From Massalongia carnosa (lineage: Eukaryota): a stretch of 64,000 nucleotides of DNA. Under the pieces are notes generated by a model, which saw nothing but the letters and a program-made list of their open reading frames with translations, made no database searches and was not told the origin of the DNA. Positions 14,060 to 57,147 of the stretch are shown piece after piece. The first letter of the stretch is position 1, and every line of letters begins with the position of its first letter. Location: assembly GCA_965645245.1 (NCBI GenBank), contig OZ287076.1:1674001-1738000 (forward strand), in the 5' to 3' direction. The position numbers were made by a program, and so were the translations under genes.

Positions 14060-14495
14060 TATCTCGAACTGGGAGGAAAGGGTCTTTTCCGATCAGATAA
14101 TTTACTTAGAGGCGCACATGGCTTATCCCTTCGTGCGCCGGTAACTCATCCACCCCAAAAGGGTTTAATGCATTACCGTAGGGCTGAGGGACGAACATCA
14201 AAATATTTACCTTTTCCACCCGAATACCTATCATTTTTGGGGAAATTACAAATAGGGGCGAAGCATTAAATCTGATTGGTTGACGGTGTGGTAAGATTGG
14301 TAGGGATAAGTTACCGGCGCACAAGGGATAGTAGCCGGCTGTTCGACGAAAGACAAAAAAAACCCTCCAAATAGCTTAGCTTGCAATATTTTATTTTATT
14401 TATAATTTTTTATTATTAAGCGTATGCATCCTAAGGATATGACGCAGTGACTGCTATTTATGTACATAAACAACAAGTCAAGAAGTAGAAACCTA

Positions 14496-17111
14496 ATCGT
14501 CGGCTCGCTTACCTCCGGGATCCGACTTGAAAAAATGTCGACCGCATTTTAGTCGGGGAAAGCGGTTGCATCCCGGAAAGCGGTTGCATCCCCTCAAATT
14601 CAAATTTCTTCATCTTTTTGATCATTGACCAACAACCACATTGATTAAAAATCAGTCGCTACCGTACATAGCTTGAAAATCATCGCCGTCATCATCACCG
14701 TCGTCAAAATCATTTCCCTTGACCCCCCTGACCCTCGTGATTCTCCGCTTACTCCGCATACCCCGCATACCCCGCATTCTACCAATCATTCGCATCTCCT
14801 GGTTGAAAAGATGCTTCTAAATCGAATTCTTTCAATGATTCTTCCAAATCGAAAGATACGAAATCATCTCGTAGCCATGTTTCTCCTTCTAGAAGATCTG
14901 GAAGGATTGAATTATCTCCATGACTAGTGCTATCTACGATAAATGTGACATCTTCCTCATTGACATTGTCACGCGGATTCTTTCTAATTTCCTTCTTCGC
15001 TTCCTCAGCTATCCATACCTCATTCGTGGCCTTCCATAATGCCTCGGGGTCAGGAATCTTCTCATACATCTCAATTGGAATGGGACCGAGTATTTTCTGC
15101 ATTTCTTTCAGCTGTTTGACTCGATCTCTTTCTGTTTTTCGAGCAGCCAATCCCTTGACATGCATTTCGTCTCTTTCTATTCGCCATAGCTTCATGAAGC
15201 TATTATTCGCTCGTTTCTCCTCAGCCTCTTGATCCTGTTGTAGTCTGATGGCTATAGCCTGCTTTGCATCTTCCGCTGTGATTCCCAATCTCCCGGTTTC
15301 TGGTCTCAGACGTTTACGAGACATTCGTCTGTTATTTAACTGACTTCTTCTTGATTCTCGATGCATTTCCAGCTCCATGCCATCGATAATCGTATTCGAA
15401 ACAACTTCATTTGTATTGTCTACAAATGAGTCCCATTCCTCAGCCCGAGCGGGATCACTCCATTGCATGGATTTTCTGATTTTCGGTCCCCATTGATTCA
15501 AACCATACTCAATGTCAGCTACTTTTGTCGGTTGGATTTGACGAGGTGGGGGTAGAGGTAATGAGGGCTCATTATTCGTATTCAGACTGTTTAATGAATC
15601 ATTGGGATCATTGGGATTGAAATTTTTCAGCTGACGAATGCATGCCTTTGGATCAATCGGCCACATTCCCGACTTTTCAAATGCATGCCGAATCGTAGAA
15701 GTCTTGAATGTATGATTTCTGATTTTGGTCAAGTCCTGTATAAATTGAGACAGAGAATACTCGACAAATGACGACGCAACGACTTCCTCAATAGCTTTGC
15801 AATGCCAATGCTTATAAGGCTGAAATACGCCCACATCCAATGGTTGCATGCAATGTGTTAAATGTGGTATAAAGGGAAAGGGTCGAATGCGATTCTCATT
15901 GGCCAAAAGTGAAAATTCAGGGGTTGTATGACTGCCATGATTATCCATCAGCAATAATTGCCATTCCGCATCAGGTCCTGCATTTGTATGTTTGATAAGA
16001 TGCTTCAAATATTCAATTGCTATCTTATCAGATGTAAAACCACTGTTCGAGGGCACGACATACGTGCCCTCGGGCACACCTTCCGAAAACCATGTGGCCA
16101 TGATGTCATGACCCTGTACGATGATCATTGGAGGGGGGGGATAGTCGCCGGCAGCATTGATAGTCTCAATAACTGTCGCAGATCTGCGATTTTTCGGGCT
16201 GACGGCGTAGAATTGTTTGATTTCCTCAGGAACAATGAGTTCCTGACCCCTCATGCATCCAACCCGAAAACCAGCTTCATCAAAGTTCAAAATGTTCCGA
16301 CTTTTTCGAATTTTCAACTCTTTCAACACCTCTCTATACCTTTCAAACCATTCCATCACATCTGATTCTTGGGCAGCTTTATAACGAATCATTGCTAGTG
16401 GTTTTGTCTTTATTTTATGAAGTTTGTTACATTTCCACCAGCTCCGAAACCATCTTCTTGACGGGCCTACCTCGAGGGGGTTATAGGCCTTTTTCAGACT
16501 TACAATAGCCTTGAAAACCATCTGATGTGTAGGAAGAATTCCATGAATCAATAAGGACTTAATAAAGCCAGTAATTGACCTTGCCTCATGCTCCCTCAGT
16601 ATCTGATTTTGTCCTCCAATTTTCCTCCCTTCTGGTCGACGAATGGAAGACGTCAAAGTTTTGACGTTGATATTGTAGATTCTAGCTGCAGTCGTTTTAC
16701 TTTCTTTGGGATGATTTGTCAGAAATTCCTTCGCCTTTTTCAATCTTTCCATGGGGTTGAGAGTAGAGACAAGGGAGGCGTCGTTATCCATGATTCGAAA
16801 GGGGAGATTGGTTCGGGGGATTGATTCGAAAGGAAAGGATTTGAATTGATAATCAGTTGGGTCGGAGAAATGATTTTCAAGCTATGTACGGTATCGGCTG
16901 ATTTTTAATCAATGTGGTTGTTGGTCAATGATCAAAAAGATGAAGAAATTTGAATTTGGGAGGATGCAACCGCTTTCCGGGATGCAACCGCTTTCCGGGA
17001 TGCAACCGCTTTCCGGGATGCAACCGCTTTCCGGGATGCAACCGCTTTCCCCGACTAAAATGCAGTCGACATTTTTTCAAGTCGGATCCCGGAGGTAAGC
17101 GAGCCGACGAT
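14496..17111 (-). mobile_element. Full-length Fot1/pogo (Tc1-mariner) DNA transposon with long TIRs
   Basis: TA TSD (14494-14495, 17112-17113); TIRs about 14496-14682 and 16870-17111 starting ATCGTCGGCTCGCTTACC; internal 18-bp repeat GGATGCAACCGCTTTCCG present 2x left and 5x right. Confidence 0.96.
14779..16791 (-). CDS. Fot1/pogo DDE_1 transposase, intact, 670 aa
   Basis: N-terminal HTH region; NFDEAGFRVG, LLLMDNHGSH and HCMQPLDVGVFQPYK catalytic motifs. Confidence 0.95.
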   Translation of the reverse strand: MDNDASLVSTLNPMERLKKAKEFLTNHPKESKTTAARIYNINVKTLTSSIRRPEGRKIGGQNQILREHEARSITGFIKSLLIHGILPTHQMVFKAIVSLKKAYNPLEVGPSRRWFRSWWKCNKLHKIKTKPLAMIRYKAAQESDVMEWFERYREVLKELKIRKSRNILNFDEAGFRVGCMRGQELIVPEEIKQFYAVSPKNRRSATVIETINAAGDYPPPPMIIVQGHDIMATWFSEGVPEGTYVVPSNSGFTSDKIAIEYLKHLIKHTNAGPDAEWQLLLMDNHGSHTTPEFSLLANENRIRPFPFIPHLTHCMQPLDVGVFQPYKHWHCKAIEEVVASSFVEYSLSQFIQDLTKIRNHTFKTSTIRHAFEKSGMWPIDPKACIRQLKNFNPNDPNDSLNSLNTNNEPSLPLPPPRQIQPTKVADIEYGLNQWGPKIRKSMQWSDPARAEEWDSFVDNTNEVVSNTIIDGMELEMHRESRRSQLNNRRMSRKRLRPETGRLGITAEDAKQAIAIRLQQDQEAEEKRANNSFMKLWRIERDEMHVKGLAARKTERDRVKQLKEMQKILGPIPIEMYEKIPDPEALWKATNEVWIAEEAKKEIRKNPRDNVNEEDVTFIVDSTSHGDNSILPDLLEGETWLRDDFVSFDLEESLKEFDLEASFQPGDANDW

Positions 17112-19259
17112 TAGCCCCCAGGGTAAAATCATTCGCTTATTTCTTGAACGCAACGAAATCGTTCTTCTGCCACGCGGTGCATACACTCAGATCTTCAAGC
17201 GCTAGGAATCCTATAGACTCGATGAACTAGACAGTGTATCTTCACACGTTCGACGAATGTTCTCTCTCTTTAATCGTTTTGACGCAATGAAGGAAAGACT
17301 GATCGTGATCGAGGGCAGATCGTGATGTCGTATATATGAAGGTGTGGAAGTGTGGCCATTTCGAATGAATGGGCTTTTTCGATGTGGTGAAAGGTTATCG
17401 CCTGAGAGGTGTGGTCATTCCGAATGAATGGGCTTTGAATGCCTTCGAAGTGGTGAATGATCAGTAGAGACGTTGATCATTCAAACGGCCATCAAGGTGG
17501 ACTTCCGCGTTGGCGGTGATCAGATATTGGCCACCTTCGAGGAGTTGTTGATAGCCTGCACCACGTAGAGGTTTCTGACCTAGCAGGCCAGAACTTTCTA
17601 TTGATGCCATTCAAAAGCACTGTAAGTTTGCTCTAGGCGATGTATTCTGCAAAAGGAATGCAGAAACTCTAGTTTATTTTAAGACACTACTACAAATTCG
17701 ACAATCTTAAAAATAGAGAAGTTTGTATCTTTCATTCAGAACCTACACATCGTGTGCAACAGACTTAGAACTAAACATTATTATGTCTCTCATCTACTCA
17801 AGTCCAGGATTTCACAACATCTCCTTGTACTCAGTCTCTTTCCAAAGCTTGTCTGACATAATATGTTTAGATTGTTTGCTGCATGTTTGTTTTGTCAAAG
17901 TTGTGTATTGATTTCAAGATAACTAGTCATGGACTCGGGCAGACCGTCCTGCGCTGGTTTAGCTTCGAGGTTTAAGTTGGAGACCCGTTGGCAAGCGGAG
18001 TCTTAAGAAAGCTGTGGGAAGTAGGGGCACAATATATCAACCCAGATTTACTCGCAAGATCGGCAGCTTTGGGACAGTCATCTGAACGTTGTTTCCTGGT
18101 TCTATTCAGCTTTCGTGCCATCTAATGGCTCACACTCTAAATAGGACTGCTGGAAAGAAGAGACCTTACCATATCAAAATAGGCGCAAACAGAGCTTGTC
18201 GACGTGCCACGGCATTAAAAACCAAACCTGCACAACCCTCACACAATCTTCTAACTATCCGCATCAATAGCTTCTATGGCAACACAAATGGTTATTTTTA
18301 GAAACTGTATGATTTGCAGAGCGCTATCTCGACGAAGGGATCTGCCATAATCAAAGTTGTGGACATAAACCTGGGAGGTAGCTTCACTTGCGTAAATTGT
18401 TCAGATCGTCTTGTAGAAAATTCTACTCTAAGAGAAAATGGAGAAGACTTTTTGTCATGGATTTTGTAACCTTTTCAGTATTAGATACACTGTCTGCTCG
18501 ATTTCACATCCATCCTCCCATAACCTTCGAGTTGCAAACGCTACTCAATTTTTTCTCTCCCACTTTGAAACAAGAATATTCCTGTAATGACGATGTATGC
18601 CCTAAATGCCGCATCGAGGCCCAAACAGTATTATTTCTCATTCGAGACTATCGAACGTTAATGCTAAATAGATGACTAGTCCCAGGACTCAGGTAAACTT
18701 TTCCTAATGATCTTTTTGGTAGCATTAGTTTAAGCGGCCAAGGCTTACCCCTTTTGTGTGTATCATCCAAGAAGGATTTGTGGAGCAAATTAGCCTTTTT
18801 TTCGAAAAACAAGGGTGATATACCGTTCTAGTAGGTAGGGTTGGAGCCGACATTCTAACTGATTCTGTCTTAGGCTGAGTAAAAAGCAAACAATATATCT
18901 TTCTGGGCCAGCTTTGATCACTGGACTTTCCCCTAATCTAGTTACTTGCTGCATCATCTACATCGCGGATGTTCTGTGTATGAGGTTATCTCTCTTCAAA
19001 CTGAGTAAATGCAAGGCTCATTTACAACATCCCTCTTCATTCACTTCCTTTCCTATTCATGAAATCGTGTCTCTTATTGGCCTCTTCACCGCCCACAACT
19101 CGTCTCTCAAATCAAAGTCTTTGCACATGCATCAGCACTAGCCCAAGACGTTCTCGCCTTTCAATGTTTCCCCCATATTCAGTCTGTACTACCCTTAGGG
19201 TCTTCCCCTTATATCCTCAATAAATTCTTGGTATGTGAAAATCTAGTCGCCCATATTCT

Positions 19260-20150
19260 TGTTGGAATACTCGCTTAGCCCCATTAGATCTAGCTCAGCC
19301 CTGCAGGCTGCCATGACTGCTATAAGCAGTCACCTCCGTAGTAATTTCAACATGATGCCGTCAACTGTTTATTTAACAGGTTATGAGTCCCGGGTTTGTG
19401 CTTTGCGCCCCTCCGACGGCATCCTTCATGCATAGACTACGTACTATCATGTCGTATCAAGAAGATGATGAGGTGAAAGTTCAGACGTGGAAAGCGCGAA
19501 AACGAAGCGGAAACGACATCGAAAGGGATGAGAAACGAAGCGGAAACGAAGCGGAAACGTCATCGAAAGTGGTGTACGTACGAAACGTGCTGAGGAGGAC
19601 ATCTACAATGGGCGGTGCCTCGAAGACTTCACATCTTGCATTACTGGTCAGATCAGCAAGGGGAGATAAAAGCCCTGCGATCAGGCCACCAACGTCAATG
19701 GTCTACGGGAAAATGTCTAACAGAGACATCGAGAAAAGCCCTGCTCAGGCCATCAACAAAACACGTCCATAGTACTCTTCCCATCCACCCATACACTCAC
19801 AAAAGCTACGTTTCGAGAAATGGTTATGGGTTTAATGAGGCTACAAAGCAGGACAACCAAAGACATAAGAAAGAACTACGTGCTTAGGGAAAATGGAGTC
19901 AGAGGGAGCTAGATTCGTTCCGCAAGGGGAGCGAATCGGACACAGCTGGATGAATCACTTCGCAAGGGGAGTGATAAAAGCTGGATAGTTTCAATTTTGG
20001 AGGCGAAAGGGGAGCCACGCTCGAAGGGGAGTGTTGGAATACTCGCTTAGCCCCATTAGATCTGGCTCAGCCCTGCAGGCTGCCATGACTGCTATAAGCA
20101 GTCACCTCCGTAGTAATTTCAACATTATGCCGTCAACTGTTTATTTAACA
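19260..20150 (+). mobile_element. Miniature non-autonomous copia-derived LTR retroelement (TRIM-like), 891 bp
   Basis: 119-bp LTRs TG...CA at 19260-19378 and 20032-20150 with 2 mismatches; 5-bp TSD ATTCT; PBS-like GGTTATGAGTCC directly after the 5' LTR; PPT GAAGGGGAG before the 3' LTR. Confidence 0.93.
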
Positions 20151-22280
20151 ATTCTCATCATGGCTCATATCGAGATGCTTTTGCACCAAGATCGTTCCCA
20201 TAACGCAATTGGCTGATTAAAAAAATAAGCCAAGCCAGCTCATCTTATTTTATTTGGCTCAGCGACTAAGCGCTAAGATCTTGTTTGAGCAAATTCCCAT
20301 CAAGGGGCTGCGGCTGGAACAGATTCGTTCTATAGAAAATTCCGGATTCTTTTGTTTTGCCTTTATTTCCCCTCTGAACGTAAAATGACAAACTGTTTCC
20401 CATCCTTGCACAACATGTTAGTGATATTTTCACAATATCTCTGCTTGTTCCTTTCTTTTCCTTTTTAGATGTAAAACACATATGCCGCTTGGCAGAGATG
20501 AAATCTGGATATCATGCAATTACTTCACAGTTAGCCTTTCACTAGCTCTTATTCTTTCTCTAGAGAGGCGAGGTAGAAACCGCCATTGGCCCAGCTCAAG
20601 TAAGTTGTTCATCGTACATGTTTATGCGTAATCTGACTGTCATCTGACATAATTTATACCTGTGCTAATCCGATGATGAGTTAGACAACGTTGATGATGA
20701 TGATGATGATGATGATGTATTCATACTCCGATATGTCACCGGCCGTAGGCCGGCCCATGCGGGCAAAGCTATCTAAGTTATGTTACATGGAAACCCTTTT
20801 TCAGGTGTAAAAACCATATCCCTTGATACCTGTCCGATGTGACACCGGGTCAACGTCCGACAGGAGACGCAGAGCGAAAATCATGTGAGAACTGTGACGC
20901 CTTGTGAGATAAGAAGGAAAAGAGAAGTAAAACAACTGTAAATTATACAATAGTGTAGATGCCAGTGAGAATTGGGTCAGTAGACCTGTTTTCATTAACC
21001 AAGTAGTTAATATCTTTAGAGTTTTTGATGTTTCGGTCAGCTGTTGATAGTTATTCGTGCCAGCGGCGCAAAATATCTGTTCTCTATTGTCAATAAGTCT
21101 ACAGAACATAATTACGTGTTCTGGAGTTTGTCTGTGTTAGCCACATGGGCAGGCCGGTGAGGTGACGGCGGGGACCCGTCGCTGGTAGAGGAAGTCAGCT
21201 AGACCGATCTTACCGGTGCGGATCTGTGTTGTCAGGGCGCTTTCTGCCTTTTTTAGCAGCGTGTGTATTTCCAGTCGTTTTTTGCTCAGTGGGACTGATT
21301 GCACTATGGAGGGTTCGGTGACGCGATTTTGATATGCGCTCCACGAGTCGTTCCAGACTTTCAGCTGTCGTGCTTTAATTGTCTGCATTTGTTTTTGACG
21401 AGCCAACGCTGCTACGGAGACTTCGCGGAGATGCGCTGGGGAGGGGTCGGACCATGGTGGGTGTGCTTTGGGTGGTTGAACGATTTTTGCGTCGATCAGT
21501 AGGTTTTTGGCCCAGGTGTGCTTCAGCTCTCCCGGAGTGGGTTTTTGAAGGCGTTTGCGACCTGCCTTGCCTTGAAGTTTGTTAACTATTTTGCTGCATG
21601 CGGAAGAAATGACCTTCGATTGACCTCCGGCTCGGAGTCGATGTCTGGCCTGCGCCTGTAGCGTGTCGAGGTGTACATCTATGGGTGCTATGTATGTCTC
21701 TGCTTCAAGAACTGGAATGGGAGTAGCTTTAAAGGCACCGGCTATGGTGTGAAGGCAGTTGTTTTGCATAACGGAGAGCTTGCTCGTTGACGTTTTTGAC
21801 TTTTTGACTTCTTTGGGCATGTGCCATACGGTTGACCCGTATGTCATGACCGGACGCACTACGGCGCTGTAAACTTGCCTTGCTTTGGTGAAGGTGGCAC
21901 CCCAAGTCGATGTGGAGATTTTTGTCAATGCCATGGATTGTTTGACCATTTTCTTTTGCGTTTTGCGAACGTGCGGTCCCCATTTCAATTTGGTGTCAAT
22001 TTGCAAGCCTAAGGCCCCGTTCGGTAACCTCCTTATTGTCAATAAGGAGCCTCCTTCTTGAAAATATGGAACCTCCTTATAATGAAAAAGGCCTTCCGTT
22101 CGGTTCGGCCTTCTCCTTATTTTTAAGGAGTCTCCTTCGCGGCAAGTTCTATAATTGGTATATTGCAAAGGGTCTGCAGGGATTGTTGCAGGGGGCCAAA
22201 AAAAGGTGTTCGCGAGGTCCTTTTTTTATTAAGGAGGGTTCTATTTGCCGCTGTATTCGACGATTGTATGTCTTTTAAAT

Positions 22281-23450
22281 ATGGAACACTACTTGCAGCG
22301 ACGATCGCAAACAGCGACGGTTATCAATTTAATCTTGATGAGAATTATTCCCAATCTAATTCTGACTACTCAGCATGAGTCGAATAGAGGCAAAGAATAT
22401 ACGACGAGTTTACTTACTGATCATCATCGTCGCATTTTTAACATGCTACGAATGTGTCTCGAGATCTTTGATGCGCTATTGGACTGATTATTAAAAAATA
22501 CTAATTTAGTATCTACTAGATGGATTGATGCGACTAAAAAGGTAACTATGTTTCTCGTCTACGTCGGTCAAGGTGTTTCGTATCGTTTGATATCTGAATG
22601 GTTCGGGCACAGTCTCGATACCGTCAGTAGAGTCTTTAAAGAGGTCTTGTATGCAATTATCACGCTGCATAAACATACTGTAAAGATGCCTCAGTCGAAT
22701 ACTTCATTGTCGTCTCATATAGCTGGAAATCCAAAATATTATCCCTTCTTCAAGGATTGTATTGGGGCGTTGGATGGTTCTCATATATCAGCTTTTGTTC
22801 CATTATCGAAACAGGCCGCTTGGAGGAATCGCAAAGGCTTTATATCTCAAAATGTATTAGCTGCGTGCGATATGGATATGTATTTCGTTTATATACTTGC
22901 TGGATGGGAGGGAACTGCTCATGATGGAAGAGTCTTGAATGATGCCATCAACAAAGGATTTATCGCCCCGTCAGGCAAATACTATCTCGCCGACGCTGGA
23001 TACTCGAACACTCTCATGACTTTGGTCCCCTATCGGGGCGTCAGATATCATCTCAAAGAACAGGCACAGCAGGCATCGAAACCACAGACCAAGCAAGAGC
23101 TGTTTAATCTTCGTCATTCATCGCTAAGAAATGTCATTGAACGACTGTTTGGCGTCATAAAACGAAGATTTCGAATACTGCAAACTGCTCCGGAGCATCC
23201 TATGCGCACACAAGTAGGACTGATATATGCGTTGACGGCGTTGAATAACTTGATTCATCATCATAGTAATGGCATATCTGATGACATAGACAACGAGATA
23301 ACGTCTGAAGAAGCATCAAACGACGTCGAAGATAAAGATGAAGAAGATGAAAGCTCAAATCAGCTTGAGAAAGATAGTAAATTCATAAACGCCAAACGAG
23401 AGGATATTGCTACTCAAATGTGGATGCAATATAGACAACATATAGATTAG
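22281..23450 (+). pseudogene. Harbinger (DDE_Tnp_4/HARBI1-like) transposase with one in-frame TGA at 22485-22487
   Basis: FKDCIGALDGSHI, QNVLAACD, GWEGTAHD, YYLADAGY, FNLRHSSLRNVIERLFG; upstream frame from ATG 22281 is interrupted by a single TGA. Confidence 0.9.
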
Positions 23451-23554
23451 AGCGAAATCCCCATGGAATAGATCAGATTTCAGTGATAACTTGATGCATT
23501 GAGTCGAGAAAGTGCTTCATATGTAGACGTTATTCAACTACTTAAAATAAAATC

Positions 23555-24490
23555 CTATGAATTCTTCTTTATTTCTTCCTGGAATTTTTCCAACTGCCTT
23601 TCCACCCATCGACGTCTGAATTTTGAACTCGTCAAACTTAGAAAGATACGAGCTTTCGTCTCGTCTTCAAACACCTCCGTCCGAATCTGATCCTCCATAT
23701 CCAGATCCTCAAACGCTGGAAAGAACACGCCCAAAGCTCGCTCTATTGGGGTCTCAACATTCTTATCTTTCAATACTTGTGATGTCTGCTGCTCGTTCGA
23801 GGTTGATAGAAAATTGATCGCCTCAGCAAGATGCTCAGAGCCGGTCTTTCTGATTCGTTTGAGACCTTCTGATGGGCCTGATGCAGAAGCGGTTCCAGCA
23901 AGTTTTCTGAGAGAGGGTACCGACGACGCGGCAGATAACGACTGAGAAATGGGGTTGGAAGACTGTGAGAATGACTGTTCTTCATCATACAAGTTATCGA
24001 CAGCTGCTAATCGAAGTCGTGGATCCAGGGCGTCTTCCTCCTCATCCAACATATCTTTATCTTCGCCTTCATCAAAATCATTTACATCTACAGCTTCCTC
24101 GCCAGTAGCCAGAACGTCAAAGAACAGCTTGTTCAACAAAGCCTCATATCTAATTGGTTTTGCGGAGGTTCGAAACTCCTTGGCCTTGGGATGTTTGTCT
24201 AGATATCGATCCCATACCTCGTCGGGTGCGGTGACAGCATTGTTATGTGGATCTCTACCGAAACCAGATTGGCTGGCTAGATGATACCAAGTTTTGTACT
24301 TGATCTTGAAAGCATCATGCTTATTCTTCAACTGATTAATTGATGCGATGATGTTGAGTCGAGTTTTCATGGCCATTTCTACAGCAGTTCAGGCATCTCT
24401 TTTATATCCTGAGTCGGCTCGCAACCCCTTACCCACCTCCTCAACAAGAGTCTCAAAGAGAGTCAAAGAGGATCTCCTCCATTAAGTAAG
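23555..24490 (-). pseudogene. Harbinger Myb/SANT-like DNA-binding protein with a premature stop near 24390
   Basis: LVEEVGKGLRADSGYKRDA*TAV..QLKNK....K..YKTW...SQSGFGRD....VTAPDEVWDRYL..HP. Confidence 0.85.
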
Positions 24491-24979
24491 ACTTGTCAAT
24501 AGCTTCTTATTGTAGCCGCGAATAAGACGCTATAAACGCACGGACACCAGCTTATTCAGGGGTGCAAAAAGGAGCAGTCTTAATGTTACCGAACAGCCCC
24601 TAAGACTCTAATGTCCGTTTTTGGTTCAATTTCGGTGCTTGCAATGTTGATAGATGCAGCCATATTGAATCTTTTGGGATTTCTAGACAAGTGAATGAGT
24701 TCGTACTTCGTCGGAGCGAATAGAGATCCGTGTCGGGAAGCCCACTTTTCGCATTGTCTGTGTATTGACTCCAGAGTCTTGCAATTCTCTTCGGTGCTTT
24801 TTCCGTATGCCAAAATGTTGGCATCGTCTACAAATCCTATGGCACTTGTGTTTGTGCCTGGTCGCTCACATATTTCCAATAGGTCTGCATTATAGAATAG
24901 ATAAAGGATGGATGAGAGAGGGGAGCCCTGTGGTATACCAGTTCTCACCGCGAATCGTCCGGTCGCTTTTCGATCTAAG

Positions 24980-25692
24980 AATGATAAAATAGAGTTGACA
25001 TCTCCTTCGTGAAGTCTCTATCCCAGTTTCGTTCATCTCACTGGTGCGTTTTACGGCCCAAGACTATTGATGAATTCTACGATTGGGGTGAACGACGTCC
25101 CTTTCGCCCAGGTCAAACCCAGTTTACTCCTTAAGCATATATCAAGGGCGAGTCTAGCCGTAGCACATGCGCCGGCGAACCGACGGGGTCTCGTTACGAG
25201 CGAGATAGACATTCCCTGCTCTATATACACCGACATGCGCATACTGTCCTATCGGGCTATGCAGACGGTCTCCGTACGGTGGCTGCCATTGCATACCACG
25301 CCTCACGGGTTTTTTACGCCCACTTCGCGTTATTCATAAAGGTCTCCCGTTTATGAACCGACCATGTCTCGCGGGGATTTCGGCCACTTTGCTCCTGACC
25401 AGGCAGTATAGCACCGATTTTCCGTCCCTACTAACTAAAAGGAGTCGAGGACAACTCGGAGGGGTGCTCGTTTGAAATTCGTCTATTAGCTCAGGGCCTA
25501 GACTGTTATCAATTAACGGGTTCCTCGTATATTGCCCTCTTCTTGTCCCAAGGGTGTCCTATTTGATGACTAGGTTGCTCCACCATCCCCGGTGCGACCC
25601 CGGTTCGGGCCGTGTTGCTCACAGTAGCCATTAATCGGATGGTTTTCATAACCCAAATCCCTTGTATCGTGCAGGGTGTGACCCCACACTAT
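24980..25692 (-). ncRNA. Candidate large structured non-coding RNA, unclassified
   Basis: Many nested helices on the minus strand with UUCG and GNRA loops (cgucgg-UUCG-ccggcg, uucauaaa-c-gg-GAGA-cc-uuuaugaa, cc-GAUA-gg), G-U pairs and no credible ORF. Confidence 0.5.
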
Positions 25693-26153
25693 GTGTCTAT
25701 ATGTTTTATTTCTTTCAGCCGGAGGGCTCCGTGTTGTAGACGAAGGAGACCCGTGTGATAGACATAGCTGACCCGTGTCGTACGTCTCTAGCTCTCAGCC
25801 GATGACTGCATGAAAGGACTTGAACCTTTAAGAGTATGATCGAACGTTGTTAACCAGGTCTATGAAAATCTTATTAACGAGATCTTTGAGAACAATATTA
25901 ACGAAGTTCCGCTGAACTCTTTTCATTCGTTTTGTGATCCATCGAAGTCTACCCGTGTCAAATCCACACCATGCCCGTGTCAAAATGCAATATTTTCAGC
26001 TGATGACTGCTAGAAAGGACTTGAACCTCTAAAAATATGTACTCCGATATTAACGGGGTGCAGATCTGCCTTAACGAGCCCCCGCAGAAACCCCTTCACA
26101 GGGACGTGTTATTGATTTGTGACTGTGTATTGTGACTGTGTGCTTTATGACTA

Positions 26154-28090
26154 ATCGTGTCAAGAAACTAGTAATCGAAGCGAGTCGCCTACTAGTGTCC
26201 GACACCTCAGTGACGCATACAGCTCAGTGACGCACTTTTCCCATTTTACCTACTATTTTACATACAATTTGTGGACAACAATGGTTATGTAAAATTTAAT
26301 TGACTATGACGCTGGTAAAACAGCTTTGCTTGCCTGGGCATAGATCGAGCGATTGCTCTATACTTTCGATCCAGGGCCAATTGCTTCTTTTCAGCAGCTA
26401 GTACGGCACGTTCATAGGCCTGCTTGGTCTTTTCCACCTCATTCTGAGTGCGTTTTGTAACCTTCGCCCGTACATCTCGAACGGTTATGACTCCTCCCTT
26501 CTGGGCCACCTTTCCATCAAGTTTTCGTCGTGCTGTCTTCGCGATGGACAACATCTGATTGGCCCGAAGGTCTCGCTCTGAAATCTGACGTGCATGAGCA
26601 CTGGAGATGGAGCCTTTCACAAATCGTTCCACATGACAGTCCCACTCGGCATTCAAAACATTGTACTTCTTCAGGCTTTTCCGAAGCTTATTTCCATATT
26701 CAACAACTTCTTTGGCTGTGGAAGGTGTTCTGGCGAGCAATGGAGCTGATGGAAGTGGGGGCGGGGTAGCAGGCCTACGGGTCTGAATAGCCTCTACTTT
26801 GCGGAGTACCACTTCTGGATTATAAGGCACCAGACCCGTGTTTCTGAATGAAGCTAGTATGGTAGTTGACGTGAATGTTTGATTTCGCATGTTCTGAAAA
26901 ATCGACAGAAAGTCGAGTTTATCGAAATCAGACCCTCCACCCCGCATCAGTTGATCAATAGCTTCGGAATGATAATGTTTGAAAGGCTGAAAACATTCTA
27001 CATCCAATGGCTGAGTGAGATGTGTGGAATGAGGTGGAAGACGAAACAATTCGATTTTGTTTCGTTTGGCATAGGTAAAAAACTCGAATGTCATATGAGA
27101 TCCATATCCATCCATGATGAGCATGCGCCATGCACCTACCTGCCCCTTTCGACTGTGTTTGTCGAAATGTTTCAACCAATCGAGAGCTAAATCATCATTG
27201 GAATAGGCGGTAGGACTGGTGGTCAGGAGAATATCATCATCCAAGTCATTGTGTTGGGCCCATTTCTCCAGCACCCATGCACCAGCGATTATGATCATGG
27301 GGGGAATATCACGCCCCCCTACACTAATACATTCACACGAGGTGATATATTCTCTATTGTCCGAGTCCGTCAACAGCAAAGACTTTCTAGAATGAGTTGA
27401 AACAACCCAATGAGCTCGCCCACAGCCAATTCGAAAGCCTGTCTCGTCCATGTTCCAAATATCCTCATCCGCTACTCCAAGAGCCTCGCGAGCAGCCCGA
27501 TATGTCTCGAAATATTCCAATATATCATCGACGTTGTGCGCATGTTTTCGCTCGACGGCTAGTGGTTTTTATTTGCGTTTGAGGAATTGAGGATGTCGAG
27601 TCAGAAAACGTTTGGTCCAGGCATTGCTGACGTGAGGAGAAGGAGTGAAAACGTCTGAATGAGCCTCTTGAAGTAGATAAGTTGCTGCCGCCCGAATCAT
27701 TGGAAGTCTGGCAGATTGTTCGGCTTGATCGAGCATTTTAATATATTCACAAAGAGCTAATTCTTGTTCATCAGACAAAGCTTTGTTGGGGGCAGAACGA
27801 CCAATTTTCGAACCACCTCCATTAAGTCTTCTCTGTAGATTACGAATGTCCACGTCGTACTCCAAAGCTACCGCGCGCACACTTCGAAAATCACCCGTGT
27901 CCCACGCGTCAATAGCTTCAAGAATTCGATTCTCCTTACTGAAAGATAAACTGGACATGATGTGGTGGAGTGATTACGTGGTGAAGAGTGGTAGGTAAAA
28001 TGGGAAAAGTGCGTCACTGAGCTGTATGCGTCACTGAGGTGTCGGACACTAGTAGGCGACTCGCTTCGATTACTAGTTTCTTGACACGAT
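26154..28090 (-). mobile_element. Second Fot1/pogo transposon, 1937 bp, nested in the chimera's 5' module
   Basis: TA TSD; about 100-bp TIRs starting ATCGTGTCAAGAAACTAGTAATCG. Confidence 0.95.
26285..27958 (-). pseudogene. Fot1/pogo transposase with one in-frame stop (TAA at 27569-27571, probably from CAA)
   Basis: HTH region, then KRK*KPLAVERK; WNMDETGFRIG, MDGYGSH, HSTHLTQPLDV motifs. Confidence 0.92.
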
Positions 28091-28106
28091 TATGTGCTTT
28101 GTGATA

Positions 28107-28565
28107 GTAATTCGGCTAAGGCGAAAGGTAATGCCGGGACCGAGTGGAGGCAGGCCGCGAAACAGCCGACGAAGGCTGAAGGCCGTGGATAGCCGAAGGA
28201 CCGAGTGGAGGCAGGCCGCGAACAGCCAACAAAGGCCGAAGGACAAAGGAGGATGATGTCCAAAATAGTTGGACAAACAAGGGAGAGAAAGGGCATAAAT
28301 AGGTGGCCTTTTGGCACTCTTCTCCTCATCATCACCAATGATTCGGAGTTCAGCACCAAAAGGTCTTTTGCCCACCCACCCACTCCCTGAATCAGCCGCA
28401 TAGGTAGATGGAGTTTTTCCCCTCACTGCTGCCAAAACAAAGCCATTATAGGAGGGGCCCTCAGCAAAACTGAGCGCCAGCAGGGCAGCAGCGAGGGGAG
28501 AGTTGCCCAAATATAGATAGAAATTATGTATATGTTCAGCTGACACGATGGAGCCCGCGAATTAC
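28107..28565 (+). mobile_element. MITE- or solo-LTR-like repeat, copy 1 (459 bp)
   Basis: 8-bp terminal inverted repeat GTAATTCG/CGAATTAC with TA flanks; about 61-bp internal tandem duplication; near-identical inverted copy at 40808-41205. Confidence 0.85.
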
Positions 28566-29081
28566 TATGTGCTTTGTGACTGTGCTTTGTAACTGTGTGC
28601 TTTGTGTCTGTGTGATTTATGACTATGTGTTTTGTGACTCTGTGTTTTCCTCGATTTTATTTAACAGGCCGGGCCTGTTAAATGAGATATTGTTATTCCG
28701 CTCCGTGATGGAGTTTTCTTGAGGTGGCTTCGCCCCGGTGCCTGTACGCGTTCTGTTGATTCCAGCTGATGACTGCATGGGAGACTTGAACTCTCAGGAG
28801 CTAGAACGCGTGTCAACCGTGCCCGGGTGGGGGGTGATGCGGCTCCTTTGGTCCACATCTTCTTCCAGCTGATGACTGCATGAAGGGACTTGAACCCTTA
28901 GAAGCATGGTGCAGGGACACGCGCATGCGAACCCCCCGGCGTTGGCCTTCGAATCCTCTTCCGTACGTACGTCTGCGACGCGTGTGAGCGCGTTAAATTA
29001 GCATTGTTTTGATGCGAAGAGATGGGAGCAAATCTATGTTTGACGGTTGCCCCACGATGAGGCCTTTGGCGTCTCCGTGGT

Positions 29082-29184
29082 GAGGACCGATGGTGTAGAA
29101 GGAGGAGGACCGATGGTGTAGAAGGAGGAGGACCGATGGTGTAGAAGGAGGAGGACCGATGGTGTAGAAGGAGGAGGACAGATC
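29082..29184. repeat. 23-bp tandem repeat GAGGACCGATGGTGTAGAAGGAG x4 plus a partial copy
   Basis: Directly readable; abuts the right TSD of the chimera. Confidence 0.95.
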
Positions 29185-29549
29185 GTTAGACAGCGTTAAT
29201 GCTTACTATTTTAAAGAAAGTGAAGGCCGGTCTAACAAAGGCCGGCCAGAGCGGTCGCTGCGCTGCGCTGCTTCAAACCCCCGATTTCAAAAAAAAAGTG
29301 GATATGTATATGGTGGTCCCTAACTGCTTCTGATGTAAACATCATTACATTCCCCATCAAGGAGATCAAGGTGCTGACGTGGAACTAGCCCGGGGCAGAC
29401 TATAGGCGTTGAAGAACTGTTCTTTTCCTGTTAAACTTGCTTTTAACTGATTTGCAGCTGAAACCTGTAGGATCTTCCTTTATTTCGATTAGCTGTTCTG
29501 GAAGTAAAAGCTAAAATTCTCATGTGGCTAGGAATATTCCTTGTACGTT

Positions 29550-31250
29550 GCCGCCCATCTGCGAAGCTTAGAGAGAAGTTGCTGTCCCGCCACCTTCATA
29601 CAAGGTTTTTAAGATCTTGGATGTTAAAAATATCAATTCGCCGAGGCTAGGGGTATCTGAATGAAGTGCTATCCGAACCAAATCGCTGTCAATATAGCTC
29701 CGCAAACAGAACCACAACTCTGGGCCGCATATAATATTATAGGTGGTAGCAGGCTGCTCAAGTCTTTCACTACCGTGGGGGTTGGATAGCCGGAGCAGCG
29801 ATTCCGATGAAATAGCGCTGGCACCAGACAAAACGTTCTGAGCTCCCGATAAATATTCCTGACTCATTCACCACTGTTAAAATTATTAAAAGCAAGTATA
29901 AGGTTGGGAGAAAGGAACGGGTCGGAACCATGAGGTTTACGCCGAAGATTTCAGCTAGCGGACGTTAAGCAATGCAAACTTAGAAACTTGGCGGTCAGCA
30001 AACATAGCTCTATCCGAAAGATGAGCTTATTTTTAGAGAGAGCGTATATATCAAGAGACAAACGAGGAAAATACATAGAAAGGGGAAATCTACCTTGAAA
30101 GGGGTTTATCAAGGTTCGAAATGCGAAGATGGATCACAAAGCCAATGACTTTCTGACAGAAAAAGGACGAGACCACTGGTACTTAACACACTCGAAGAAC
30201 TTTGAATGCTCAAAATCCCAGCCTCGGCTGAAATGGAAAACAGATTTGGTAATTTTGTCACTTCATGCCAGAATCTGACGTCTCAAGTAAAATTTAAGAG
30301 AATACATACTATCTCTTGTACTATAACATCAGAAATCCAAGAAAACCTAGTCGTCAACGCTTGATTAAAATCGAAAACCAAGTTCACGGTTTCTGGAATT
30401 GAGCCGGAGAACAAAATGCGATATATTCGAGGCACGAGATATCTCTTGCTATGCCTTAACCGAAAGCCTCTCCTCAAAGAACTGGGGAAAAGGTTATCTG
30501 TCAGTCCTGTATAGCGGTTCGTCAATCCTTGCCAGGAACTAGAAAATTCCAAGAATCTGTCAATTTGACTGAATATTTGGAACCTGAAACGGGGGTTATC
30601 GCTCCTATGCACTTCAAGTTCCGGATAGGGAGGCAGGATACTCCATGTTATTTCATCAGAGACAGTTTTACCAGAAGATGGAATCCCAAACTTTTTCTAG
30701 TTGCCGACCGAAGCTGAGGACGGGAAAGATAAGCCCCGAAACCTTTTTTTGCTACAGTGGAAGAATTCGAGTTCAATAGATTTCTTTGGCGGTTTTCAAG
30801 GCTTCTAAGCTTGGCAAGCTGGTACGGATGGAAAAATTTGTTATGCAAGCCCAAAGACAACGATATATTTTAGCACCCTGATCCACCCCTTGCTTCACTG
30901 TCCTTGCAGCGATTTGAAACCACAACAATAGCCCACTTGGCCTCATTGAATAATTTCATCGGCGATGCTGATACCTGTCGGTTCCCGTATGAGGGAGCAC
31001 ACGAGTGGGCACCATCTTTGTTTTCACTATGCGCTAGGCGCATTGGAGGGAGAACAGGCTAAAGATGTTATTGTGTGGCTCATTAACTGATATAGAATCA
31101 AGACACAAAGGACGTTCGGGAGCTCTGTAGCCGAGCATAGGATGTATGGAGACATTTCTGAGGATTCCAAGCAGCGAAAACAAGTCCAATTTGAAGAAAA
31201 CTTGGGTGATTGGATAGCATTTATAAATCTCTTTAGTAGCTACTAGATAT
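29550..31250 (-). pseudogene. Decayed DUF3723-like gene (Starship-associated family)
   Basis: Collinear fragments in shifting frames: CFRCLESSEMSPYI, YGNRQVSA..LFNEAKWAIVVV, FQIFSQI, LFPSSLRRGFRLRHSKRYL, LLRLSNPHGSE..GPELW..DTPSLGEL. The order matches DUF3723 motifs as I recall them. Confidence 0.55.
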
Positions 31251-40609: not shown

Positions 40610-40807
40610 ACTTCATTAGTTCCCAGCAAGCTGGTGCGTTATGATGAAATTATCATACAATATTCTGAATCAAATTCATTGTTGATATTTGAAAAAATCC
40701 GCTTGAAACCATGCAATCATGCAAATGCAATTTTGAAATTTTCCAATGTGGTTTTGCGTCAAACAAATCCAACGAGTTCCCATATTCTTTACCCAAGAAG
40801 TGGAGTA

Positions 40808-41205
40808 GTAATTCGCGGGCTCCATCGTGTCAGCTGAACATATACATAATTTCTATCTATGTTTGGGCAACTCTCCCCTCGCTGCTGCCCTGCTGGCGCT
40901 CAGTTTTGCTGAGGGCCCCTCCTATAATGGCTTTGTTTTGGCAGCAGTGAGGGGAAAAACTCCATCTACCTATGCGTCTGATTCAGGGAGTGGGTGGGTG
41001 GGCAAAAGACCTTTTGGTGCTGAACTCCGAATCATTGGTGATGATGAGGAGAAGAGTGCCCAAAGGCCACCTATTTATGCCCTTTCTCTCCCTTGTTTGT
41101 CCAACTATTTTGGCCATCATCCTCCTTTGTCCTTCGGCCTTTGTTGGCTGTTCGCGGCCTGCCTCCACTCGGTCCCGGCATTACCTTTCGCCTTAGCCGA
41201 ATTAC
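40808..41205 (-). mobile_element. MITE- or solo-LTR-like repeat, copy 2 (398 bp), inverted relative to 28107-28565
   Basis: Near-identical reverse complement of copy 1 without the internal duplication; flanks TA and TC. Confidence 0.85.
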
Positions 41206-41456
41206 TCTTATACAGCCCAGGGCGAGACCTTGGATCACTTCTATCTCTGGGCGTCTAACCGATTTGAGAAAGCATAAAGAAAGCGCTGAAGGAGGATAAA
41301 CTGGGTGGTGTGCGTCTATGAATCAATCGTACTGTCACTGGGCCATCATATGAAAAAGAAATGAATGATCAGGTCATCGTCGTCGTCAAGTTGCTACGTG
41401 CGCACTGACTAGCTGACTAGATGAAGAGATGAAGAGATAAACTGAACAGAAGAAGT

Positions 41457-45632: not shown

Positions 45633-45675
45633 TAGTAGTCGACTCGCTTCGATTACTACTTTCTTGACACGATTA
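45633..45675 (+). repeat. Orphan TIR tip of the 26154-28090 Fot1 family
   Basis: tagtagtcgactcgcttcgattactactttcttgacacgatTA matches 28050-28092 with 2 mismatches. Confidence 0.85.
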
Positions 45676-52619: not shown

Positions 52620-53040
52620 GGCTCGGGTGGCTGTAATATTACAGCAAGTACTATGCGCTTTTAGCTAGCCCTGAGCTGTCTGAGCTGTCTGAGCTGTCTG
52701 AGCTGTCTGAGCTGTCTGAGCTGTCTGAAAAATGAGAATTTTGATGTTCTTACATGCGCACGAACAGTTACACTTCATCAAATTGTATGTCGTTCAACGA
52801 ACATCAACTTAATTTAAATTATAGTTTCATTTCGATTGATTCACGCAAATCATGACATGTAATGCGCGATAACCATGCGCAATGTGCATACAACGTGTGT
52901 ATGCATGCAAACATAAATTTCTGCAGTCAGCTCGGTACTACTAAGAGTTGCTCGACGCACTTAAGAGGTGCTAAAATAGCTCATGAGTTAAGACATGTGC
53001 ATAATCGGCCGCTGAGTCAATCGGAGCTCTCGAGGCTGAC
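52620..53040 (+). repeat. Diverged ~400-bp repeat, left copy, including (CTGAGCTGT)6
   Basis: Reverse-complement similarity to 57148-57520 over its length, e.g. gctcgacgcactt.aga.gtgctaaaatagctcatga and ccgctgagtcaatcgg.gct. Confidence 0.8.
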
Positions 53041-54154: not shown

Positions 54155-56021
54155 TTAGGCACCGCCTGCCATATCAAGTTTCTTGCCCTTGACACTCCTC
54201 CATTCATAAAGCAAGCTGCACAGAAATGCAATGCCTGCACAGGCAATAGCAAGAATATACGCATTCGTCACGGCGATATTGTATGCCTCCAAGACTCCAG
54301 GAAGCTGAGCAGGCGTAACGACATTTCGTATGTGTGTAGCACCAGCTTGGACGATGATCTCTGGTTTCACTCCCGGGGCATGTTTGCGAATCTCCTTAAT
54401 CAAGGTGTTGCTGAAGATATTTTGTGCGATTGAGATCGAAATGGCGCCACCCAGACTGTTGAAGAAAATAGTCGTGGAATTGCCGATCGGCATGTCCTTC
54501 TTGTTCAAAACCACCTGTACCGCAATAAAGGGAATTTGCACACACATTCCAGCGCCAAAACCAGCAAGTATTTGGTAGCCGATCCATGTGCCAGTACTCG
54601 TGTCGACTTTCAAAGTATAGATTAAACCAGAGCCAACTGTGAATATGGCACTGCCGACCCAGGTGAATGGTACATAGACGCCGAAAGCTGTGATCAAGCC
54701 TCCCACAACTATCGAAGCAATAGTCATGCTGACCAGGTAAGAGATTGTTCTGATGCCGGAGCCCTCAGCGCTTGTCCCTTTGACGGCCTGAAAGTAGAAT
54801 GGCAGATAATAAATATGTGTGTACAGTGCCATAGCAAGGAAGGAACTGAATAGGGCACATGCAAGGACAGTCCTTTGCTTGACAATAATCCGAGGCGGAA
54901 GGGTAGCAAGATCTCCGCGTCGAATTTGAATGATGATGAACACGATGATAAGAAGGCCGAACCCCAACAAACAGCCCCAAATTCTACTGTCATGCCACGG
55001 GTAGACACTGCCGCCCCATTGAAGAGCAAGCAGGAGACAGACAATAGCACAAATGAGGAAAAACGCACCAAGCAGATCGATTTGCAGGATCTTCTGCTTG
55101 AATGTGAGCTTCGATTCTTTTCGTTCGGGATTTTGGAAGAAGAAGAAAACGATAGCGATCGCAAGCGCTCCAACAGGCAAATTGATATAAAAGCACCATC
55201 GCCATGAGACTCGATCGGTGAAGGCACCACCTGGTAATAATGTTAGCCCTACGAACAAAGCATACAACACGAGAAATCCGTTTGAAATAAAGTCAATGGT
55301 CACACTTACCAAGCAAGGGTCCAACGACAGAAGCAATACCAAAGGTTGAAGAGAGAAGACCGATATAAATGGGGCGCTTTCGTAGAGGTACTGAGTAGGC
55401 GACAATGGTCATTCCGCCCGAGAACAAGGCAGCAGCGCCTATACCAGCAACTGCGCGGCCCACAATCAACATCCTAGTATTGACAGCAGCACCACAAAGG
55501 ACGGAGCCCAGTTCGAAGATGAGCAGAGCCGCGATGTAAGTCCACTTGACATTGAAGAAGGTATATATCTTGCCGAAAGATGGCTGCAATGATGTGGTCG
55601 TGAGCAAGTAAGATGATCCATACCAGCCCACATCATCCAGCGAATTGAAGACTGTCGTGATGCGAGGAATAGCCGTAGAAATGATTGTATTGTCGAGGGC
55701 GACGACGAAAGTGGCGAGGAACAGACCAAATGTAAGCAGATACAACTTAGATCCTTTCATGTATTCTGATTCATTGTCCTCGCCTGGTTCGGCTGCAGAT
55801 GATGCTGTGGCTGTTGACACTGTTCGCTCGAGAGCTTCAGCCTTTTCTGGTTGCTCCTCTGCCTGGGTTGTAGTTTGCGCCTCATTTTCCGCATTCGGTT
55901 TAGTCGCGGCAGTGGCGGTAACCGTTGATTCCTGTCTATCTTGACCTTCGAAATTTGTACTAGAACTTGAGGTTGGCGTTGCCTTTTCAAGCTCTGTCGC
56001 CTTTCTCCGTGGCAGTCCCAT
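54155..56021 (-). CDS. MFS drug:H+ antiporter (DHA2/14-TMS, AflT/efflux-pump-like); intron 55231-55309
   Basis: [65 protein letters not shown]. Confidence 0.95.
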
Positions 56022-57147
56022 GTCGCTACTACAGGCCCGATATTGCTCGTTATAAGAAGGTATGCAAGTCTTGTCGAGCACAGTAAAGTGGAAAACCGAT
56101 GAATGGCAAGATTTAAGGCAGATCTTAGCATTTTGTGGTGAATAGCGCGCTAATCCATAAGGGGAAAAAGGTTACTTTCCAACCCGTTAAACACCGCATT
56201 AGGGGAACACCTAGTCGGTTGGACGAGAGCACCACCACCATCCTTCAGACTTTTTGCTCATCCCTGTCTCGTTTCCGTCAAAACGGCTACTCTGTTCCAA
56301 CACGTTTCGAATCCCCCGACCATCCGGACGGGACTTTCCTTGCTGCCCTGCCCTCTGCTCACAAAGCAAAACAATATCTGACAGGACAAGCATGGCTTCT
56401 GACACAACTGCAAGTTACACGAAAACGTGGGCTTAGATTAACAGAGTACGGAGTACAGTAACTTATTTCCAGCTTATTCAGGGTTCCGTTTAAGGGTTTT
56501 TGGTGCTTTCTTTTATCTCGTCGGGTAAAGATACCTTTAAGCTTCCTAGTGCTTTTCCCGTCCAACTATCACATCTTTGGGTTAGAACTGCAGATCTGCT
56601 CGTTCCCACTTCCAAGGCTCTGGCTGTTGAAGGCAGTTGGTGACTGCGATTACCAGATCAGGCTAGCTTGCATTCTTAGGAGTTTAGATAAAATCTCTGC
56701 AGATAGTAAACAGAAGACCCATCCCTTTAATTATTCATATTATGCACCAAGTGATCAATTCGTTGCCTCAATATTGGCATCCGTGATCTGATGTGAGCCG
56801 ACATCGACGTTGAATCATTTTTGGGGGCCAATGATAAGCAAAAGCGCCACTACAAGAGTTAGCCACCGGCACATGGCGACTAGCCAGCAGCACATGGCGC
56901 TCCGAGTGCAACCTAGTTAAAAACTTAGCGTAAGAATACTAGTTATGGTACATTTTAGAGGCGGTTATTAGGGAGCGGCTGGTAATTACTCAAGCTGGTA
57001 TCGTTGCCACGTTCTAATGCTCAAGGTGTCAGGAATCAACATTAAAAAGCATGAGTCATTTCCCAACTTGCAGATAGCAAAGGGATGGCGCTGGGCTTGG
57101 CCACGTTGCTGACCGGTGAGGGCTTCTACACTATAGCACTTCGGAAA

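Follow-up and report, generated by a model that had tools for sequence, protein, structure and literature searches.

The stretch of DNA analysed here (the window; 64,000 nucleotides, positions 1,674,001 to 1,738,000 of contig OZ287076.1, assembly GCA_965645245.1, Massalongia carnosa) is transposon-rich nuclear DNA of a filamentous ascomycete. On its minus strand a first-pass annotation, made from the letters of the window, had proposed an unclassified functional RNA of about 700 nt, and the sequence and hairpins that it named are present there, within limits (24980-25692) that nearly match those of the domain described here (24975-25690). This domain is a conserved structured RNA of ~715 nt, kept by compensatory change and lying outside the Rfam 15 families. 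It is not a stand-alone RNA gene; it forms the 3' domain of a longer non-coding sequence, here called the head, to which a long interspersed nuclear element (LINE) is joined directly, the reverse transcriptase (RT) region of the LINE beginning at 24974 and adjoining the head end at 24975 (Table 1). The composite has the architecture of the MINE elements of Magnaporthe, namely a non-coding head with a constant end and a directly joined, variably truncated LINE in the same orientation. The head is probably a non-coding RNA that was fused to the 5'-truncated LINE as a MINE-type chimera through a template jump of the RT.

The head belongs to a multi-copy family that is present in several organisms. 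Contigs of four public runs were compared with the segment 24300-26160, which contains the LINE fragment and the head together, and in one of these runs (X1) 2509 contigs match it. Sequence from 24975 toward higher coordinates occurs at ~97-98% identity in three organisms (B, C and D), each of which has a different flank before 24975, and intact LINE copies elsewhere continue past 24974. Homologues were retrieved with a degenerate pattern built from the four copies of a 44-nt motif that lie near the domain, which yielded 40 metagenome loci; a 25-nt pattern taken from the domain itself found no match in the metagenome contigs. The structured domain turned out to be common to 33 of the 40 motif-retrieved loci, at 60-76% identity to the region, which had not been expected beforehand, and the order of parts is constant across loci, with the motif repeats followed by the structured domain. 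Two further types of locus stand out. In L013/L006 and L003 just the first part of the domain (window 25700-25547) lies beside the motif before the sequences diverge, and these may be a shorter variant or truncated heads. In L008 (after oriented position 1783) and L004 (after ~3645) the head is followed by ~1130 and 410 nt, respectively, that lack similarity to LINE proteins; these could be solo heads, heads with a long spacer, or heads joined to a LINE 3' untranslated region (UTR) only.

The fold was derived from 16 copies that were aligned with MAFFT in the LINE sense (919 columns) and represent six lineages at 58-75% identity. The RNAalifold consensus comprises 135 pairs in 27 helices, long-range closing helices included, and 96.2% of its 2123 cells are paired, compared with 34.5-46.1% when the partners are slid by 1-3 columns. 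Changes on both sides of a pair occur in 59 of the 135 pairs, against 9-15 in the slid controls and 33.1 +/- 3.0 in shuffles; the covariation score is 0.368 versus 0.234, and the observed value was reached by none of 500 shuffles. When each lineage is represented by one sequence, 94.5% of the cells are paired and 57 pairs are compensatory (3-13 in the slid controls). The same consensus also identifies the strand, since the mirror structure on the other strand is paired in 83.2% of cells and turns 324 G-U cells into C-A, an asymmetry which argues that the RNA is the minus strand of the window. Beside the covarying helices stand invariant single-stranded junction blocks, for instance AACGCGAAG, GAGACCGUCU, GGACAGUAUGCGCAUGUCGGU, AUGCUUAAGGAGUAAAC and GGUGGAAAC. 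The window copy retains 113 of 131 consensus pairs, with 18 broken, and differs from the consensus of its own family by 16 substitutions, ten of which fall in paired columns; four of these restore a broken pair and four keep or improve pairing. In the open-access literature searched we found no description of a conserved structure for LINE heads of this kind.

The individual helices named by the first-pass annotation fared unevenly when they were tested on the other 15 sequences. Three of the 13 are supported: gugugggg/cccugcac (H1; 83% paired, 4/8 pairs compensatory), the GAGA-capped uucauaaa..uuuaugaa stem (H15/H16; inner gg/cc 100% paired, outer arm 60% with 6/8 pairs compensatory) and the terminal auagag/cucuau hairpin (H26; 99% paired, 5/6 compensatory). 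Eight find no support, being paired in 45-66% of cases; these are gaguug/cgacuc, cgucgg/ccggcg, ccuuga/uuaagg and ccagu/acugg together with the long-range pairs agcacc/ggugcu, ccgua/uacgg, gcgcaugu/gcaugugc and agacu/agucu. The remaining two, cc-GAUA-gg and cgcg/cgcg, are invariant in the alignment and thus carry no covariation signal. What stands of the original proposal is that the minus strand carries a structured RNA, functional and unclassified, with covariation in six lineages, the G-U asymmetry, no Rfam match and no open reading frame (ORF) above chance; what falls is its free-standing character.

The searches of known RNA families and proteins agree with this assignment. At the gathering score, the covariance models of Rfam 15 gave no match in the window or in 20 loci, and in E-value mode (24800-26200 and homologues, E up to 10) they returned noise only, the best E being 0.081 for a 47-nt bacterial small RNA model; no Rfam intron, RNase P or ribozyme model matched in the window or the homologues. 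Decay of a coding sequence, which the first-pass annotation had held up as a possible refutation, left no trace in the form of protein similarity or of an ORF above chance. No Pfam match occurs in the six frames of 24901-26151, 120 proteins of the LINE family gave no more than chance tblastn matches upstream of ~25020, and in none of the 16 copies does the longest ORF exceed the range of the shuffles. Decayed LINE coding sequence is rejected on these grounds, and correcting the sequence to the family consensus lengthened no ORF beyond chance.

Upstream of the structured domain (on the minus strand, hence at higher coordinates) the head continues with two copies of the 44-nt motif, 201 bp apart (25795-25838 and 25996-26039), with short tandem repeats of 22-24 bp and with repeated CCCGTGTC boxes, before it runs into a 13-nt microsatellite from ~26113. 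Read as RNA, the 44-nt motif consists of a T-arm-like hairpin, with a stem of 5 bp and the loop UUCAAGU, and of the sequence GCAGUCAUCRGCUG after it, and by eye it resembles the T-arm and 3' acceptor strand of a tRNA; neither ARAGORN nor Rfam recognised the module. Its stems AAAGG/CCUUU, GGGGG/CCCCC and GGAAG/CUUCC differ in a compensatory manner across copies and lineages, as judged by eye, and the motif also occurs within the H8 loop of L001-type, L007, L008 and L034 copies. An apparent second end of the repeat at 26128 proved to be an internal stretch of the microsatellite, into which a pogo element and a 460-bp miniature inverted-repeat transposable element (MITE) have been inserted. The head probably extends beyond these insertions: in one contig from organism B, head, microsatellite and a segment like 28838-28930 stand in the same order as in the window. 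The repeat thus reaches farther in the 5' direction of the minus strand, and loose ends of contigs from runs X2 and X3 match 28838-28930. This comparison past the microsatellite did not locate the 5' end of the head in the window.

The junction between head and LINE has one fixed and one variable side. A LINE ORF was detected by tblastn in 19 of the 40 loci, each of these ORFs being co-oriented with the head and situated downstream of it. On the LINE protein the join points fall at about amino acids (aa) 1 (L007/L020), 6 (L014), 310 (L010), 483, 625, 685, 712, 717, 790, 841, 908, 926, 986 and 1002, and at ~638 in the window, which amounts to ~15 distinct positions between aa 1 and aa 1002 in these 19 loci and the window. 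The 3' end of the head is, by comparison, fixed at the nucleotide level and reads ...YCUURG (window 24975). In 10 of 10 copies of one family it is ...ATATCTATCCTTGG/TTAG (also given as ...ATCCTTGG/TTAG, or CCTTGG/CCTTAG), and the homologous ends are ...TTCTTGG in L025 and L040, ...CGTTGG in L007, ...CTGTTGG in L008 and ...TTCTTAG in the window; three loci (L017, L029 and L004) have an extra insertion of ~55 nt before the head end. Target-site duplications (TSDs) of 13 bp surround the whole composite in L001 (exact) and L022 (one mismatch), and both heads are cut short at the 5' end, each at its own position. The same junction occurs within different flanks in L001 and L027, which shows that the composite was re-mobilised; in their family the head is ~2.0 kb long and its 5' start is consistent within ~25 nt.

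Chimeras of this kind have a precedent in Magnaporthe grisea/oryzae, where 31 MINEs were described as full-length 1.1-kb non-coding WEIRD sequences fused to the MGL LINE truncated at 28 sites (Gogvadze et al., 2007, PMC2104539). According to that paper, MINEs are flanked by TSDs, no solo WEIRD was found, the fusions are attributed to RT template switching, and WEIRD itself is a well-expressed non-coding RNA of unknown function for which no relatives were found in other genomes. Stress-induced MINE transcripts are described in a later study, which also lists two WEIRD primers (PMC3978060), and Fudal et al. (2005) is cited as a further source on MINEs in PMC12465478. The composites described here share with MINEs a constant 3' end of the 5' part, which is non-coding and at least ~1.1 kb long, a co-oriented LINE truncated at many positions, TSDs around the whole composite (here in two relatives), junctions that are in some cases common to several copies, and the lack of an obvious solo 5' part. 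They differ in that the head occurs in at least six lineages with a fold supported by covariation, whereas WEIRD has no described structure and was reported to lack relatives in other genomes; in addition, the GCC|A/U switch motif is not seen here, full-length LINE ORFs also carry the head (L007 and L014), and the head contains T-arm-like repeats. A second precedent is offered by mammalian chimeras of U6 small nuclear RNA with L1 and by other chimeric retrogenes, likewise explained by RT template switching (summarised in PMC2104539), in which the 3' end of a full-length small or medium-sized RNA adjoins a co-oriented LINE with variable 5' truncation and the whole is flanked by TSDs. There, however, known cellular RNAs that have genes of their own act as acceptors, while the acceptor here is unclassified and ~1.2-2 kb long, is seen for the most part, and perhaps exclusively, in attachment to LINEs, and is much commoner in relation to the LINE.

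A mechanism along these lines would begin with target-primed reverse transcription, during which the RT of the LINE would copy the LINE RNA from its 3' end. It might halt at a variable point, switch to a head RNA at the free 3' end of the latter and copy the head as well, so that the head would supply the 5' end of the new copy, the T-arm-like repeat region being a possible promoter. Because the new copy would obtain its 5' end in this way, such composites could be transcribed and mobilised again via the 3' end of the LINE. The conserved fold most likely makes the head stable, gives it a defined 3' end and keeps it associated with the LINE protein, which would render it a preferred acceptor for the jump, and the upstream repeats might act in transcription or protein binding. 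We suggest that template jumping onto a dedicated RNA could be a regular part of the life cycle of this LINE clade rather than an accident. A much bolder extension would see in the head a new class of large (~700 nt), structured and possibly catalytic RNA that makes up, together with an ascomycete LINE clade, a replication system of two RNAs, defines its own 3' end (by self-cleavage or by a tRNA-processing enzyme recruited through the T-arm-like modules) and serves as a programmed jump acceptor restoring a transcribable 5' end to truncated cDNAs, with WEIRD as a diverged member of a widespread family; we regard this as doubtful.

Several observations weigh against the template-jump chimera or against the fold on which it builds. 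The separate acceptor RNA with a free ...YCUURG end is hypothetical. A search for TSDs around the window copy gave none of at least 10 nt, which we attribute to the 5' end of the head not having been located there. The GCC|A/U switch motif of Magnaporthe was not seen at the five junctions that were compared with longer copies, and the two WEIRD primers, a weak test, had no match at up to 5 mismatches in the window head or the 40 loci, so that homology of the head to WEIRD is unproven. With regard to the fold, the consensus structure was counted on the same alignment that produced it, a circularity partly covered by the slid controls and by the three helices predicted from the window copy alone, and the remaining two of the ten substitutions in paired columns break a pair. 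The folding energies are also weak. The first-pass annotation had described the region as densely base-paired and had named an energy no better than that of shuffled controls as a refuting result; such an energy is what was found, the minimum free energy (MFE) of the window copy (713 nt) being -228.1 kcal/mol on the minus strand against -223.2 +/- 7.0 (z -0.70), with 4 of 20 dinucleotide shuffles folding equally well, and z being +0.16 on the plus strand and -0.81 and -2.21 in two homologues. Such scores imply that dense base pairing is not measurable from one sequence, and thermodynamics alone would have missed the structured domain; we let the positive covariation test override the energies.

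The same energies are what could be expected if nothing functional were present and the hairpins had arisen by chance in transposon debris or decayed coding sequence, as might also be said of the position of the region in a transposon nest and of the 18 broken pairs in the window copy. Covariation far above the controls, retention of the sequence across six lineages, the lack of a six-frame Pfam match or an above-chance ORF in any of the 16 copies, and the failure of LINE proteins to align to the region make this hardly credible. A more serious, though on balance unlikely, alternative is that the head is the long structured 5' UTR of the LINE itself and that the composites are internal-deletion derivatives of full-length elements; the fold might then serve translation (for example as an internal ribosome entry site), assembly of the ribonucleoprotein, or second-strand or 5'-end integration like the 5' RNA of R2, in a LINE clade with a single ORF of ~1120 aa and no ORF1. 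The head lies 345 nt (L007/L020) and 838 nt (L014) upstream of a full-length LINE ORF, a further point against a jump, being equally expected of a 5' UTR. It is always upstream of the LINE and co-oriented with it, many 1120-aa relatives sit on contigs of 5.1-5.8 kb that leave ~1.9 kb of non-ORF sequence, head and LINE parts are similarly diverged (93.9% vs 95.5%), and no clear solo head gene was seen, nor was one found in Magnaporthe (PMC2104539). Ordinary internal deletions, however, would not share one start nucleotide, whereas here the head end is fixed and the LINE end falls at 15 or more positions, and the spacer of the full-length copies is absent from every truncated composite. Since a mechanism that uses the 3' end of the head as an RNA end would still be required, the 5' UTR explanation merges with that of the template jump.

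How such an RNA end might arise is addressed by the idea that the domain is, or contains, a self-processing RNA, either a new large ribozyme or a substrate of tRNA-processing enzymes via the T-arm-like modules, in which a cut at ...CUURG| would yield the free 3' end for the jump. Self-processing at this end is attractive as a reading of the sequence features: the 3' end is precise to the nucleotide, with a G conserved even though the lineages are only 58-75% identical, the covarying helices are bordered by many invariant single-stranded junction blocks, as in catalytic cores, and the missing solo head gene (PMC2104539) would be accounted for. The 3' tail can also pair with an invariant UUAAGGA, at 7 of 7 positions in the window and six copies of the largest family and at 6 of 7 in L025 and L023, but this pairing is not discriminating, both sides being nearly invariant and purine-rich partners plentiful. 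With no match to an Rfam ribozyme model even at E up to 10 and no tRNA-like gene detected by ARAGORN, we consider self-processing quite improbable. Other origins were tried and set aside. Spliceosomal joining does not fit, as AA precedes the LINE side of the window junction in intact copies and no GT follows the head end in full-length copies. Site-specific insertion of the LINE into a head gene is less likely because there are composites with TSDs and unrelated downstream flanks. A solo long terminal repeat, a Helitron and a terminal inverted repeat (TIR) element are rejected, the ends not being TG..CA, the flanks being unfit for A|T and no TIR being present, and a plus-strand short interspersed nuclear element (SINE) with a 3' microsatellite tail is rejected as well, the supposed tail after 26128 being the internal microsatellite, beyond which the family continues. 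For a tRNA-derived SINE, ARAGORN found no tRNA in window 20000-30000 or in nine loci, and there is only the T-arm-like hairpin with its B-box-like loop, recognised by eye.

Several other systems resemble the composites in part. Structured 5' RNAs are known from other non-LTR elements, such as the protein-binding 5' RNA of R2 with its hepatitis delta virus (HDV)-like ribozyme and Pr77 of L1Tc/ingi with the derivatives RIME and NARTc; these RNAs measure ~80-300 nt, and it is the 5' end of the element that they cleave or define. Like the head, they are conserved RNA structures placed 5' in a LINE, with non-autonomous derivatives that keep a 5' head and a 3' tail, but the domain here is ~715 nt long, has a defined 3' end and matches neither an HDV-like nor any other Rfam ribozyme model. 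As in tRNA-derived SINEs and the 5' UTR monomers of mouse L1, a promoter-like 5' module is joined to a LINE-derived 3' end, the module here consisting of tandem repeats of 116-201 bp in variable number, each with a B-box-like GGUUCAAGUCC; unlike in such SINEs, no tRNA is detectable, the head is far longer, and the junctions were made many times, not once in a master copy.

The first-pass annotation had also noted a loose likeness to group II intron ends, citing a GUGUG start and an end of unpaired As and CUCUAU, and had placed a UUUU after the terminal hairpin. The domain does resemble group II introns in its length of ~700 nt, in a fold of several domains closed by long-range helices, and in its terminal hairpin of 34 columns. 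The start and the U-run are peculiar to the window copy, however, the 5' GUGYG being replaced by GCAAG, CGUUG or GGCUG in other lineages, so the likeness is not conserved among the homologues. Domain V is by consensus a hairpin with an AGC triad and a GNRA loop, and the intron ends in AY. The terminal hairpin here, with 6 bp and 4 bp around a 7-nt internal loop, does not have this form, which bears out the remark of the first-pass annotation that no convincing domain V is present. Flanking exons are lacking, the associated RT is an APE-type LINE protein, and no Intron_gpII or group-II-D1D4 match was obtained with Rfam in the window or the homologues.

Altogether, chimeras of a head and a LINE, previously known from one fungus, are now seen with the same architecture in a different fungus and in many metagenome contigs, and the head additionally has a large fold kept by compensatory evolution. 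It represents a widespread, unclassified structured RNA of ~700 nt that is tied to LINE replication. The alignment and the structure are available as a basis for a covariance model, and the fold opens direct assays of the role of the head in RT binding, 3'-end formation and acceptance of template jumps.

Table 1. Features of the head-LINE composite and of the elements inserted into it, in window coordinates.
Feature	Position	Strand	Basis
Conserved structured RNA domain (3' domain of the non-coding head)	24975..25690	-	alignment, RNAalifold, element end at 24975
H1	25686-25683/25675-25672	-	RNAalifold consensus mapped to window
H2, closes domain I	25664-25659/25554-25549	-	RNAalifold consensus mapped to window
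H8	25547-25542/25444-25439	-	RNAalifold consensus mapped to window
H11, closes large domain	25438-25433/25028-25023	-	RNAalifold consensus mapped to window
Terminal hairpin H26/H27	25021-24989	-	RNAalifold consensus mapped to window
Single-stranded 3' tail, ends ...UUCUUAG	24988-24975	-	alignment
Upstream part of head	25691..26151	-	same order (motif repeats, then structured domain) in homologous loci
Probable further 5' part of head: rest of microsatellite (28568-28650), motif copies (28760-28800, 28866-28908)	28568..28930	-	membership in head inferred
5'-truncated LINE (non-LTR retrotransposon), RT segment	24598..24974	-	Pfam RVT_1; tblastn with relatives; abuts last base of head
Remainder of LINE: C-terminal part of ORF (22012-20940), 3' UTR, (CAT)n tail	20692..22012	-	tblastn
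PIF/Harbinger-type DNA transposon, later insertion splitting LINE	22014..24597	+	TIR GGCCCCGTTCGGTAAC (16 nt), TSD TAA
DDE_Tnp_4 ORF of PIF/Harbinger-type transposon	22548-23450	+	Pfam
Myb_DNA-bind_3 ORF of PIF/Harbinger-type transposon	23555-24376	-	Pfam
pogo/Fot1-type DDE_1 transposon, later insertion in microsatellite of head	26152..28092	-	perfect 102-bp TIRs, TA duplication
MITE-like repeat, ~460 bp, later insertion in same microsatellite	28106..28567	+	TIR AGTAATTCG

The LINE in the window is preserved in two pieces on either side of the PIF/Harbinger-type transposon. By tblastn, the upstream piece corresponds to ~aa 638-764 of a 1120-aa relative (P0004) at 24978-24598 and the downstream piece to ~aa 763-1120 at 22012-20939; the element terminates in its (CAT)n tail at ~20717-20692. 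The RVT_1 fragment has its relatives among LINE proteins of 1120 aa that are encoded by a single ORF and combine Exo_endo_phos with RVT_1. The window composite is an old, slightly decayed member of its family that was later struck by three DNA transposons. One of these, the pogo/Fot1-type element, has a DDE_1 ORF of 411 aa (427 aa from stop to stop) and an N-terminal segment in the same frame, and looks recently active. The MITE-like repeat has a second copy at 40806-41206, 98.9% identical over 370 bp, and neither copy contains an ORF with a Pfam match.

Pfam matches in the window as a whole comprise a TRI12/MFS transporter, a P450, FSH1, DUF7730, two DDE_1 transposases, a hAT dimerisation domain, DDE_Tnp_4 and RVT_1, and the best named relatives of the FSH1 protein are from lichen-forming Lecanoromycetes (ascomycetes; 41-48% identity). 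Just downstream of the LINE 3' end lies a 119-bp direct repeat (19260-19378 and 20032-20150; 98% identity). A solitary 43-bp copy of the TIR of the pogo/Fot1-type element is present at 45633-45675. The second DDE_1 (pogo/Fot1-like) element, at 14493-17114, contains a 700-aa stop-to-stop ORF (14782-16881, minus strand) and is bordered by diverged inverted repeats of ~245 bp (16870-17114 vs 14683-14493, 76%). Another pair of diverged inverted repeats (52700-53028 and 57152-57483; 76-83% identity), ~4 kb apart, surrounds the gene of the MFS/TRI12-type transporter at 54158-56171.

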